This document shows positions 11,323 through 35,033 of a DNA stretch of 64,000 nt, one piece after another (position 1 is the first letter of the stretch; each line of letters opens with the position of its first letter). The stretch comes from Tubiluchus corallicola (lineage: Eukaryota; Animalia; Priapulida), in contig JAQGDQ010000007.1 of assembly GCA_030141605.1 (NCBI GenBank), positions 248,001 to 312,000 on the forward strand, read 5' to 3'. The position numbers and the translations under genes are program-made. The notes under the pieces were generated by a model. That model ran no database searches and was not told the DNA's origin. It worked only from the letters and a program-made list of their open reading frames with translations.

Positions 11323-14300
11323 ATGATTGTAGTTTGGGAATTACTGACGTTTTGGATGTCTTTCAAAACGCTCTTAGCAGAAACAGATTTGATTGTTCTT
11401 CATACAAATGACTTGAGTTCAAGAATAGAACAAGCTGATGTTTTGGGCGGACCATGCAGTCAAGCGGAAGATTTAGACGGTTTATGTTGGGGCGGCTATC
11501 CCAGAATTATTTCAAAGGTTACGCTCCTACAGAATATTCTATTTAATTGGGGAGCTAGCAGCCAGCTAGAGTTTCAAATTGAACAACTAGTTTTCAGTTC
11601 AGTTTACATAAATACTATTCTAGTACATTGGCAATACACATAGAAAACGCACTTTATAATTACTCAAAAATATAAATTTGGCAAAATATAACAAGTCTTT
11701 ATTAAAGATTATACAAAACTTACATAAGTCTATACTACAGGACTATGATGGAAAACTGGTGTCAACATATAGATAATAATAATGCCAATAACTGCTACCT
11801 AAAAATGACAGATAACGTACATAATTACAGTAAATGCTTATTTGCATTTCACTAATATAGAGGTAGAAGTATAGTTGTATGCTTTATTTTCGTAGATTCT
11901 CCTATTTTCAGTATATAGAGAGCAATTAAAAATGAAAAATAGTACGTCTTCCATTTTAGATTATAAGACTATGTCATGGACTTAAGTCAAAAAGTTAGAC
12001 TAACCAGACAGACTCAGCTTTCGCCTGATCTAAAGTGATTTTATGCACTTGTAGAAAATTTCCAAATTATTTTTTGCAAAACTGGCTCGAATATTTAATT
12101 AATGTATTACGTTCATTTATTTTACAAATAATATGATTATTGGTTCTGTGAATCTGAAACTTTATTTCAACATTTTATTTTCCGGTGTCGCTTTGTATTG
12201 CATTTTATCTTCACGTCTTGTTAATTTTATCTAAGTACCTAATAAAAATACAAGGAGGTAACTACAAATCCTGCAAATTTCACACATCGCTTGATCAGTT
12301 CTTAAATTTGTTCAGCGAACTTCAATTCAGGATTGTATACTTTATGACATAAACTCCTGGCGATGATGATGATGATGAATTGATGATGATGATATCTAGA
12401 AGTAGAAGGAGAAAGAAAAGAACTACAATGATATCGCGTTGTTGGTGTTGGTAATAGGAGTAGCAATGGCAATAGTGGTGATTTTTATTGAAGTGAATGG
12501 TGGCAGGGATAAAAGTGGATTAAAATTTGTTGAGGACTTTTGCAAGTAACCTAATAAACTACAACTGCTCAGTTTAGCTCATCTCCATGAGGAACAAAAA
12601 CTAGCTAATAAGAAATTACACGGTAGGTTGCCAGTTTTGGAATAATAATGCACGTTTTGGGCCTCATGTTATGAAGTCTTGCACTTTTGTGCTTTTAAGG
12701 AACAATCTTCTGTCAACTGTCAACTGCGGCACTTCAACAAACTTCAAAATTTTCACAGGTAAAGGAAATTAGAAGCGGTTTAGGTGGACCAATTGATGAA
12801 TATAGCTATGAATATGAAGACGACAATGATGATTATGAGTATAACTACGAAGATGATGATGACTACGGCAATGGCGATGATAATGTTAACTATTATGATG
12901 GTGCAAACAGCACGATGAAGCCGAACGTTGTATTTATGGATGCTGGAGAACAAGCCGAGGGTACATTGTGGTATGCTGTGCACAGGTGGAGAGTCATAGC
13001 CTACTTCATGAACTTGGCAGGATATGACGTTGCCGTAAGTATTAACGAAAAAAATGAGTACAGGAAATGAGTATTTCATATAAAACACGGTGTAGTTTCA
13101 GAATATCCAAGATTTTTTTACAAAATTTCAAGATTGTTATTTATTCAACCTAAAATATGACATTCGAACCAATACATTAGTTCGTTTGGATGAAACACTT
13201 AAGACTGTAGCTTAATTTCGATTACATATATTAATGTTGTGTGGCTGAGGGGACCTGAAGATGAACCATCATGGTATCAAGAAAGCTAAACTTACACTTT
13301 CAAATGCCCAGACGGCGTAGCTTCAGTCAGTTCCCAAAACACGTGAACAAAACGAGATGAGGGGCAAACTATGGAATGTGTTTAAAACCAAATTGTTTGA
13401 TAGTAAAGCTTATACACTACCGGTCGAAGGTGAAAAGTTTCTTAAAATTAATTTTACTTCAACATTTACTTTTGAAACGTTTTTTGTATGGTTAGAGCTG
13501 AAAAGACGTATCTTGGACACTTGTGCCAGACTAGTAAGGGTGTGGCCTGTGAGTTTTTTATTCGACACTGCAAGTGAGTAGAAGTCAACCGTTGTGCTTA
13601 GTCAGTCTAGGCAGTGGGAAGGGACCGGAATTTGCTCATTACTAAGATTAGTTTTCCAAGAGGAGGCATTAGACTGGCAGAATTGTCCAGCTTACTGTGC
13701 ATTTATCGTATGTTTACTACAACATACAACAAAGAGCATATATATTATATTCATATACGTTACAAATTATTATTCTTGCAGACTATAGGAAATCATGACT
13801 TTGATCTTGGCGTAGAAAACGCTGCAGATTTCTTAAAGAATCTTAGCTTTCCTGTCGTAAGCACTAATATTGACGCTAAAAATGAACCACTAATAAGAAG
13901 CAGGTGAGTGTCCTGTACTAACGATCAGGTGAGTAAGCTGATTGACTGATTGACTAGGTGCCACCCAGGGTTTCCCTGTTGTCTTTCTTTTTATCCAAAA
14001 GGGTTCGTTTACTGTGCAGTTTGGTTTCGAACTGGATCCAGCACTTAATGGCAAGGCCTGCTCCGTGTGAAGGCCTGAGGTGGGATCTCAATTTTGAGGT
14101 GGCATACTGCAATAGCACATTTTTGAGGTAGACAATAGCAAGTGCCTCAACCAGGGTCGGGTGATGACATATACAAACTCCATCAAACAAACAGTTAGAG
14201 TAGGCAAATCAAACAGCCCAGAGTGAATGTTAAGCCTGACAGTCACTCATCCATTCATTGGCAAGTCTCAGCATTGCTTAACTTTTGTCGCTAAGCATAC

Positions 14301-34200: not shown

Positions 34201-35033
34201 CATTTTACAAAAAAACTTTACTTTATCCATGGAGATAAAGTAAAGTTTTTTTTTGTAAAATGGAAACACAAACACCGTGGCACTTCATGCATTGCGGATC
34301 ACGCATTTCTCGCACACGGAGTCCTAACGTAAACCTTATAAATCTCCTGGATCCCAGTTGGTCTGCAATTTAGAATTTATCTGGAATTGTATTCCGAAAT
34401 TGTCTGCTCTGCAATTTGCTCAAACGGTTTCTCAAATGTTTCTCAATTTATTTAATTTTATTTCATTAAAATTATGCAAAAGTTGTAGTTATATTTCACC
34501 TTTTTTTTCTTCCTTCTACTTCAACTTCCAGGTAATAGTTGAAAACAAATAAAAGATGAAAGTTTACCCAAGATGAACAATCCTTCATCTATTTACGAAA
34601 ATGCCTAGTTATGAATATTTTTCATTAAATAGGTTATCTGTAGCTGTCCTCCTGCTGTCCACAGTTTACTGTACTTCACATGTCATGCTTATTACACAGG
34701 TCAGTGTACAAAATAGCAACATTATAGATTAATAATTACACTAATTATGCACATAATACCTTTATAGGTAACCATGTTACGGTGGATGTGGCAAACTATA
34801 TACGCAGGGTATCACCTGTAACTCAAGGAATAGAAGGCAGAATAATGTTTATGGATCGGAGCGCCAACTGTAACGACTTTCAGCAGACTCAGCAGATTGC
34901 AAATCCTCAATCACAAGTCTTTGCAAGGGGAAAAATGCCAGTCAGAACACATGGAAGGCGGCCAGGTCGCCCATATTTGAAACCCAAGTGGGAGCGACGA
35001 CCTGCCTTGACATGGAAACTTGATCGAGACTAG
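22271..35033 (+). CDS. CD73/ecto-5'-nucleotidase-fold protein, paralogue 2 (~615 aa; signal peptide, catalytic His absent, basic C-tail, no GPI signal); exons 22271-22483, 22796-22933, 25111-25232, 26381-26466, 28751-28942, 29397-29600, 30160-30272, 30844-30988, 32205-32360, 33201-33413, 34768-35033
   Basis: 11 GT-AG exons give 1848 nt in frame, with the same intron positions and phases as paralogue 1. Motifs ILHTND, CWGGYAR, DAG, GNNDFD, CRIRECTLGN, NSGAIR, LPFGN, FLAEGGDGY and EGRI are present. Confidence 0.93.
22543..22710. repeat. (CT)n microsatellite with short (CA)n tail
   Basis: Seen directly. Confidence 0.97.
25369..25583. repeat. Compound (TAT)/(TAG)n/(ATC)n microsatellite
   Basis: Seen directly. 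Confidence 0.97.
26533..27684 (+). mobile_element. Non-autonomous Helitron-like element, copy 1, with an internal GT-rich simple repeat
   Basis: 5' TC followed by TA-rich sequence; 3' hairpin GCAAAAATATTTTTGC ~9 nt before CTAG|T. Homologous to 37060-37372 and 46822-47560. Confidence 0.75.
28505..28697. repeat. Decayed (GAT)/(GGT)n simple repeat, intronic
   Basis: Seen directly, just upstream of exon 5 of paralogue 2. Confidence 0.9.
30545..30715 (+). repeat. Dispersed repeat with degenerate telomere-like (AACCCT)n core; second copy ~50840-50990
   Basis: Both copies read CCCACACA..., degenerate CCTAAC units, then GAACTAATTTCTTGTGTG(TG)GGGAA. Confidence 0.75.
31028..31380 (+). mobile_element. 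hAT-type MITE
   Basis: TIRs CAGGGCTGGA...TCCAGCCCTG with perfect 8-bp TSD ACTATTAC (31020-31027 and 31381-31388). Confidence 0.9.

Follow-up and report, generated by a model that had tools for sequence, protein, structure and literature searches.

Members of the CD73/UshA family of 5'-nucleotidases hold two metal ions through D36, H38, D85, N117, H220 and H243, and the natural metal site of the bacterial UshA and CpdB proteins is rich in histidine. Two tandem genes in a 64,000-nucleotide stretch of the Tubiluchus corallicola genome (the window) encode proteins of this type in which all three zinc-binding histidines are replaced, mostly by aspartate. They raise the question of whether such a site still binds a metal, still supports catalysis, or does neither.

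Gene structure and family membership

Both genes lie on the + strand, and tblastn found only these two copies within the 64-kb window. Their features are as follows.

11323..19664, + strand: paralogue 1 gene, 11 exons, 650-aa CD73-type protein
11323-11517, 12759-13034, 13782-13903, 14649-14743, 15473-15667, 16226-16426, + strand: paralogue 1 exons 1-6
16759-16877, 17413-17557, 17933-18088, 18531-18734, 19420-19664, + strand: paralogue 1 exons 7-11
11323..11382, + strand: putative signal peptide, paralogue 1 (N-terminus hydrophobic; assessed by eye and from hydropathy alone)
12777..12914, + strand: 46-codon in-frame insert rich in Asp/Glu/Tyr/Asn, exon 2, paralogue 1 only, just 5' of motif II
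19602..19661, + strand: hydrophobic C-terminal tail of paralogue 1, possibly a GPI signal (hydropathy 2.44 over 15 residues)
22271..35033, + strand: paralogue 2 gene, 11 exons, 615-aa CD73-type protein
22271-22483, 22796-22933, 25111-25232, 26381-26466, 28751-28942, 29397-29600, + strand: paralogue 2 exons 1-6
30160-30272, 30844-30988, 32205-32360, 33201-33413, 34768-35033, + strand: paralogue 2 exons 7-11
22271..22321, + strand: putative signal peptide, paralogue 2 (from hydropathy alone)
34860..35030, + strand: C-terminus of paralogue 2, a polar and basic tail that shows no hydrophobic anchor signal in any reading frame

GT..AG borders bound all 10 introns in each copy, with intron phases identical between the copies, and neither spliced frame contains an internal stop. 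The open frames and the 20 GT..AG introns, together with the purifying selection described below, bear out the claim of the first-pass annotation that two intact genes are present. Short-read contigs from run X1, possibly the source sample itself, show no differences from paralogue 1 over 12777-13183 and 15400-16332, and because they are identical there, E85, D220 and D243 of this copy are not long-read artefacts. The acidic insert is likewise identical in an X1 contig; its interpretation as an unspliced intron was judged improbable on sequence, given that it has no donor or acceptor resembling the 20 real ones. An RNA run labelled as the same species (X2, 14 million letters) yielded three partial matches, all of them outside the conserved exons, and speaks neither way.

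PF02872 scored above its cut-off in five of the six exons tested (exons 8-10 of both paralogues), with exon 8 of paralogue 1 just under it, and no N-domain exon searched singly matched PF00149. CD73 structures were matched by exon 5 of paralogue 1 and exons 2 and 10 of paralogue 2 (E 1.7e-6 and 4.5e-7 for the N-domain exons), and BLASTP against full-length homologues gave E values down to 6e-113. An atlas search with exon 5 returned generic phosphoesterase fragments only, and word-index searches with single exons produced 80 and 9 candidates, none of which scored. Judged by these comparisons, both proteins belong to the CD73/UshA 5'-nucleotidase family, with an N-terminal calcineurin-like domain and a C-terminal 5_nucleotid_C domain. 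UshA and CpdB have the two-domain mechanism in common with them and are distant in sequence. With CD73/NT5E (PDB 4h2i, 6s7f, 7qgm and others), whose animal members are about 40% identical to them, the paralogues share the two-domain layout, the order and spacing of the motifs, the base-stacking pocket, three disulphide pairs and the N-terminal hydrophobic leader. The disulphide cysteines (51-57, 353-358 and 476-479) are complete, six of six, in both copies, and cysteines 365/387 are absent from both, as from most sampled rows. Unlike CD73/NT5E, paralogue 1 carries the 46-residue acidic insert and paralogue 2 lacks the anchor tail, and hydropathy suggests that the product of the latter is likely soluble. 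The idea that a frameshift hides an anchor tail in paralogue 2 was rejected, as no hydrophobic tail appears in any of the three frames.

The metal-ligand site

Residues were numbered by alignment to the 574-aa mammalian CD73 (P0284), and every motif place given in the first-pass annotation was recovered on the + strand.

11401..11418, + strand: motif I, paralogue 1, HTND at 11401; D36 kept, H38 to S
12939..12950, + strand: motif II, paralogue 1, DAGE; bridging D85 to E
13788..13805, + strand: motif III, paralogue 1, GNHD at 13788-13799; N117 and catalytic dyad H118/D121 kept
15559..15648, + strand: motifs IV and V, paralogue 1, ALGD at 15559-15570, GGDS at 15631-15642; H220D, G222D, H243D, N245R
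16869..16871, + strand: R354 to H, paralogue 1 (alignment to CD73); R395 to K is encoded by exon 8
22367..22384, + strand: motif I, paralogue 2, HTND at 22367; D36 kept, H38D
22838..22849, + strand: motif II, paralogue 2, DAGE; D85E
25117..25134, + strand: motif III, paralogue 2, GNND at 25117-25128; N117 and D121 kept, catalytic H118 to N
28834..28923, + strand: motifs IV and V, paralogue 2, ALGD at 28834-28845, GGDS at 28906-28917; H220D, G222N, H243D, N245G

At positions 36/38/85/117/220/243 paralogue 1 reads DSENDD and paralogue 2 DDENDD, each keeping two of the six canonical dimetal ligands. DHDNHH is found in 132 of the 136 homologues in which all six columns are filled, and the paralogue patterns in none. 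D36, E85, N117, D220 and D243 are the same in the two copies, and positions 38, 222, 245, 246, 279 and 281 carry a different residue in each. The description of the site as histidine-free is accurate for the ligand set but not for paralogue 1, where the catalytic His118 is still present. Judging from the codons, three single-base CAY-to-GAY substitutions in the ancestral gene, together with D85E, are enough; the earlier tally of five Asp among six His replacements scores shared events twice, three His-to-Asp events being sufficient.

Catalytic dyad and nucleotide pocket

The H118/D121 dyad is intact in paralogue 1, whereas paralogue 2 has N118 beside the retained D121. The new chemistry suggested for these proteins is thereby weakened for paralogue 2, and it is weakened too by the faster divergence of the entire catalytic domain. 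Complementation between the two copies was rejected, since both halves of one site in CD73 come from a single chain. According to PMC7508162, CD73 residues 354, 390, 392, 395, 417, 500 and 506 hold nucleotide analogues and position 245 touches the alpha-phosphate. Paralogue 2 retains R354, N390, G392, R395, F417, F500 and D506, a substrate pocket complete at six of six residues when G392 is left aside, and paralogue 1 has H354, K395 and Y500, tyrosine at 500 being common (46/145 rows). The loss of the phosphate-binding R354 and R395 is predicted to weaken phosphate binding in paralogue 1. In CpdB, the His117Ala substitution leaves the enzyme almost inactive on 3'-AMP with adenosine inhibition little altered (PMC7922932), and thus splits catalysis from adenosine binding.

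Selection and origin of the remodelling

The two paralogues are 53.5% identical, with pN 0.31, pS 0.72 and synonymous sites near saturation, and both genes are under purifying selection. They are sisters with full support in the trees, and the site changes arose once, before the duplication. The proposal that the remodelling is older than the duplication and does not reflect decay is upheld by the sister relationship, the shared changes on the metal site and the excess of pS over pN.

Sixty-three columns are near-invariant (at least 95% in 78 non-redundant homologues) and both copies keep 53 of them, 35/44 in the N-domain and 18/19 in the C-domain. The changed columns are 38, 85, 118, 220, 222, 243, 246, 251, 279 and 395; nine of these ten belong to the catalytic domain and fall mainly within its metal motifs, a distribution that points to targeted remodelling concentrated on the metal site. 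Identity between the paralogues is 50% in the N-domain and 59% in the C-domain, and an N-minus-C gap this low occurs in none of 8001 pairs drawn from 127 canonical proteins (the pairs are not independent), whose mean gap of +9 points runs in the opposite direction. Against canonical proteins the paralogue C-domains are 40-42% identical, compared with 41% for distant canonical pairs among themselves, and the N-domains 38-41%, compared with 50%. It is therefore the catalytic domain that has changed faster and the nucleotide-binding domain more slowly, opposite to what canonical pairs show.

Under a crude neutral model the chance of E85, D220 and D243 being retained in both copies is at most 0.0008, and the shared acids are constrained. 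However, at other columns 22 of 48 rare lineage-specific derived residues are common to both copies, so that ordinary structural constraint would be expected to yield three shared acids in roughly one case out of ten; because rare residues at those columns are shared nearly as frequently, keeping the acids in both copies is no specific sign of a role in metal binding.

Relatives and searches for the signature

Among the sampled proteins, the 5'-nucleotidase-like protein of Priapulus caudatus (XP_014681751, P0022) shows the highest N-domain identity to both copies (48%, the next being 46% and 44%) and has in common with them a one-residue insertion found otherwise in 6 of 142 other rows. It groups with the paralogues in three of four trees; the tree placing the pair with arthropods was favoured by FastTree and not rejected (p-AU 0.54). 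Unlike the paralogues, it has the canonical D,H,D,N,H,H and His118. Its gene model lacks much of the C-domain, and its predicted structure (pLDDT 67) is uninformative on the paralogues' site.

The apyrase-like protein of Onthophagus taurus (XP_071052264, P0152) is a full-length insect homologue with a dead site, and has H243D as in the paralogues. Unlike them, it reads D,Y,N,S,N,D with Q118, is not acid-rich and has lost N117 and D85. Its dead site is independent of theirs because the protein is nested among insects in the trees; an atlas search with it returned ordinary 5'-nucleotidase clusters. This independent dung beetle copy suggests that dead CD73-type proteins recur.

The signature searches listed top-ranked matches, from genomes that included no close relative's. 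Aspartate at both positions of the ligand pair occurred in none of 167 matched stretches (150 best matches listed, exhaustive exon-5 search), and a DNA motif scan for IALGD-x19-VGGDS hit five metagenome and nine genome loci, with a nucleotidase match at none of the 14. With the 136 complete homologues also negative, no subfamily marked by DAGE + LGD + GGDS appeared among the matches listed, and conservation of the signature rests on two sequences, since it was found in no other genome searched. No published description of the signature was found in the literature searched, which included few subscription papers.

Discussion

The reading that we favour, at a probability of about one half, is that both paralogues are non-catalytic nucleotide binders with a predicted carboxylate Ca/Mg site. 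Hydrolysis would have been lost and nucleotide binding kept, the old two-zinc site now likely being a Ca2+/Mg2+ carboxylate pocket. The C-terminal domain would stack the base between residues 417 and 500, hold the ribose through D506 and close onto the N-terminal pocket of D36, E85, N117, D220 and D243, where a single hard cation could sit and bridge to a phosphate. Lacking zinc-type water activation, and in paralogue 2 also His118, the proteins would turn over little or no substrate. The membrane-anchored form, with an extra acidic loop, would be paralogue 1 and the soluble form paralogue 2, and their role would be in capture, buffering or presentation of extracellular nucleotides or adenosine. 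Against this reading, paralogue 1 lacks R354/R395 and keeps H118/D121, which would be superfluous for a pure binder, and the signature is known from two sequences and from no other genome searched.

Further objections to the binding model also favour a reading that we consider possible but clearly less probable, in which the proteins are metal-free pseudoenzymes: one ancestral hit ended catalysis, drift then turned the remaining histidines into whichever polar residue was closest, and the acids persisted only because they suit their loops, leaving adhesion, scaffold or ligand-binding proteins with an ion-free site. The CAY-to-GAY changes are one-base changes, rare residues are commonly shared across the protein (the 22/48 above), the residues at 38, 222, 245, 246, 279 and 281 differ between copies as relaxed sites would, as do second-shell residues, and the O. 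taurus protein reached H243D independently while plainly wrecking its site. However, four carboxylates and an asparagine packed without a cation would be expected to repel, every shared replacement at the ligand positions is an acid, and both copies still have D36 and N117, while N117 is missing from the beetle protein together with D85.

It is unlikely that paralogue 1, at least, catalyses phosphoester hydrolysis through an all-oxygen Mg/Mn/Ca centre on an altered range of substrates, an arrangement in which D85E would lengthen the bridge to offset the shorter Asp side chains and R245 would replace the lost R354. This copy does retain H118/D121, D36 and N117 and gains an arginine at 245, the alpha-phosphate contact position in CD73; positions 85, 117, 220 and 243, which we take to be the second-metal ligands, are identical in both copies, and all-carboxylate Mg/Mn sites exist in other phosphatase folds (PPM/PP2C, HAD). 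Yet Ser at 38 is a poor ligand, paralogue 2 has the fuller acid set without His118, the catalytic domain as a whole is evolving more quickly than it does in functional enzymes, and the pattern occurs in no natural homologue among those sampled. Moreover, a table in PMC8475336 lists bacterial family members as already Mg/Ca-activated, so such rewiring may be needless. The joint scenario of paralogue 1 as a working calcineurin-fold phosphoesterase (His-free all-oxygen Mg/Ca centre, new substrate) and paralogue 2 as its soluble, dead nucleotide-trapping twin is a slightly longer shot still. Decaying pseudogenes or sequence error are very improbable, given the twenty GT..AG introns, the two open frames, the identity and pN/pS values above, six conserved cysteines in both copies, the same changes in two genes and the agreement of the X1 contigs with paralogue 1.

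If the proteins are only metal-free pseudoenzymes of one lineage, they are a curiosity of modest reach; if an active enzyme and its trapping twin, they would be a natural experiment in which a His-rich dimetal site proves swappable wholesale for carboxylates. In a family whose metal site is nearly invariant, the paralogues represent a natural carboxylate swap that has outlasted a duplication so old that synonymous sites are near saturation, with the nucleotide pocket largely kept. With this pair it can be tested directly at the bench whether oxygen ligands by themselves suffice for activity or metal binding in a calcineurin-fold site, and whether animals capture extracellular nucleotides with dead CD73 copies.

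Gene structure and family membership

The pair and the other features of the window are as follows.

11323-19664: paralogue 1, 11 exons, ten GT..AG introns, single open frame of 650 residues
22271-35033: paralogue 2, 11 exons, ten GT..AG introns, single open frame of 615 residues
26572-27192, 37022-37355, 46838-47553: dispersed repeat of several hundred bases in three diverged copies, about 74-89% alike, one of them in intron 4 of paralogue 2
24628-24918 (+), 37369-37740 (-), 62787-63314 (+): retrotransposon-like frames, no Pfam match; presumably worn non-LTR retrotransposon fragments
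47942-52658 (-): spliced Ras-family gene, three exons matching PF00071; presumably Rab5-like
57511-58538 (-): two exon-like frames, no Pfam match; presumably resembling mitochondrial ribosomal protein L10
59863-60436: a pair of 249-nt copies with 99% identity, separated by 325 bases, inside a repeat family that also has inverted copies around 53100-53640

A six-frame motif scan recovered all the metal-site motifs of the first-pass annotation where it had placed them in both genes, and no third CD73-type copy was found within the window. Intron phases are identical between the paralogues (exon boundaries set by coordinate). Across 527 core codons the two share 53.5% identity; pN is 0.305, pS 0.72 and dS 2.4 overall (undefined for the N-domain). 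The resulting dN/dS of about 0.16, only rough because dS is near saturation, lies well under the value near 1 named beforehand as counting against functional genes. Contigs from the short-read run X1, which may be the source sample, match parts of paralogue 1, with 0 differences over 12777-13183 and 15400-16332 and two, both intronic, over 13302-13898.

Exons of both genes match human CD73 structures and PF02872, and human numbering was taken from 7qgm and transferred via a 574-residue mammalian CD73 (P0284). In CD73, positions 36, 38, 85, 117, 220 and 243 are the zinc ligands. By architecture and ancestry both proteins are CD73/UshA family members, but each keeps just 2 of the 6 dimetal ligands, and they should not be classed as active 5'-nucleotidases. 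One paper confirms that N117, H118, N245, R354, R395, F417, F500 and D506 take part in the binding of nucleotide analogues by CD73 (PMC7508162); passages from two others add nothing on ligand assignment (PMC5805337; PMC9194930).

The metal site among homologues

The six ligand columns, canonically DHDNHH, read DSENDD in paralogue 1 and DDENDD in paralogue 2. An exon-5 profile of both genes gave 550 matches to E 0.001 among 1.84 billion representatives; in the best 150 of these, 154 of 167 matched stretches carry His/His at 220/243 and none Asp/Asp. A second profile, built from the exons in staggered register with five full-length relatives and biased toward canonical proteins, contributed the best 120 of 4429 matches. 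From the 285 proteins collected we retained 145 homologues of 400-700 residues, leaving out fragments, fusions, one bacterial protein and one shorter duplicate. DHDNHH occurs in 132 of the 136 with all six columns filled; the other four are all insect proteins (aphid, Drosophila ficusphila, leafhopper and dung beetle), and none has either paralogue's pattern. In each of the insect proteins P0045, P0133 and P0145, two or three ligands are changed. Scanning metagenomes and prokaryote genomes for the DNA motif gave 14 loci, none of them encoding a nucleotidase. Given 0/167, 0/136 and 0/14, the signature is therefore known, among top-ranked matches, from the T. corallicola genome only. A search of the open-access literature likewise found no description of the signature.

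Phylogenetic position and domain divergence

Among the homologues sampled, Priapulus caudatus (XP_014681751) has the highest N-domain identity to the pair (48%). It groups with the pair in a tree of 45 rows (bootstrap 85), in an N-domain tree (support 65) and in a mixture-model N-domain tree calculated minus the ligand columns and the beetle row (SH-aLRT 97); FastTree with 147 rows placed the pair among arthropods (0.997), a grouping that is not rejected (p-AU 0.54). The host is most probably an invertebrate of the Ecdysozoa.

The paralogues are 50% identical in the catalytic N-domain and 59% in the nucleotide-binding C-domain. Canonical pairs (8001 pairs, 127 full-length proteins) average 9 points higher identity in the N-domain than in the C-domain, none has an N-minus-C gap as negative, and an N-domain this diverged occurs in 2 of 178 pairs of similar C-domain identity; these statistics are descriptive, as pairs share ancestry. 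The paralogue C-domains are at most as distant from canonical proteins as these are among themselves; for the N-domains the distance is about 10 points greater. A fast N-domain beside a kept C-domain is what lost or changed catalysis with a retained binding domain would predict.

Both copies retain 53 of the 63 columns that are >=95% invariant among 78 non-redundant homologues. The ten changed (38, 85, 118, 220, 222, 243, 246, 251, 279 and 395; 251 in an uncertain alignment stretch) include nine in the N-domain and seven inside metal motifs. Exon 2 of paralogue 1 contains an acidic, Tyr-rich insert of 46 codons that paralogue 2 lacks; synonymous codons are mixed along it, and no convincing splice site lies within. 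The C-terminus of paralogue 1 is a hydrophobic, GPI-signal-like tail, and that of paralogue 2 is polar and basic.

Origin and proposed role of the acidic residues

Three one-base His-to-Asp changes plus D85E on the long shared stem (99-100% support in trees) would suffice to explain the pattern, followed, in an order we infer, by D38S in paralogue 1 and H118N in paralogue 2. The first-pass annotation had proposed selected remodelling. Retention of E85, D220 and D243 in both copies has a probability of <=0.0008 under a neutral codon model, and on that ground the three are constrained. However, when all columns are considered, both copies have a rare derived residue in common in 22 of 48 cases, making three of three unremarkable (~0.1). 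Constraint on the acids is demonstrated, and a metal role is proposed on chemical grounds. D36, E85, D220, D243 and N117 would line one pocket; oxygen-only ligand sets favour Ca/Mg, and the shorter side chains may leave space for a larger ion in the putative site.

The likeliest reading, about an even bet (roughly 0.5), is that both paralogues bind nucleotides but do not cut them. The former metal site would have become a carboxylate pocket holding Ca/Mg, and nucleotide binding would be kept without catalysis; in a study of CpdB, His117Ala removes catalysis while adenosine binding persists (PMC7922932). Metal-free pseudoenzymes are unlikely, at roughly one chance in four. It is improbable that paralogue 1 is an active enzyme with an all-oxygen centre. 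Paralogue 1 retains His118/Asp121 but carries H354, K395 and R245; paralogue 2 has Asn for catalytic His118 and retains the entire substrate pocket. A review table gives activation by Mg or Ca for bacterial members of the family (PMC8475336), so a metal change alone may not need such rewiring. Decay or sequence error, set against open frames in both genes and matching contigs for paralogue 1, is very improbable.

An Azospirillum brasilense plasmid p3 locus (L002:756-2288, WP_035678109.1) encodes a secreted-looking 5'-nucleotidase homologue with N-terminal metal motifs that look degenerate by eye. The dung beetle protein (Onthophagus taurus XP_071052264), full-length and apyrase-like, has a fully degenerate metal site (DYNSND with Q118). 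It is an independent animal pseudo-nucleotidase, and dead CD73-type copies recur; the window pair differs in that acids systematically replace the ligands and have persisted in both of these old paralogues.
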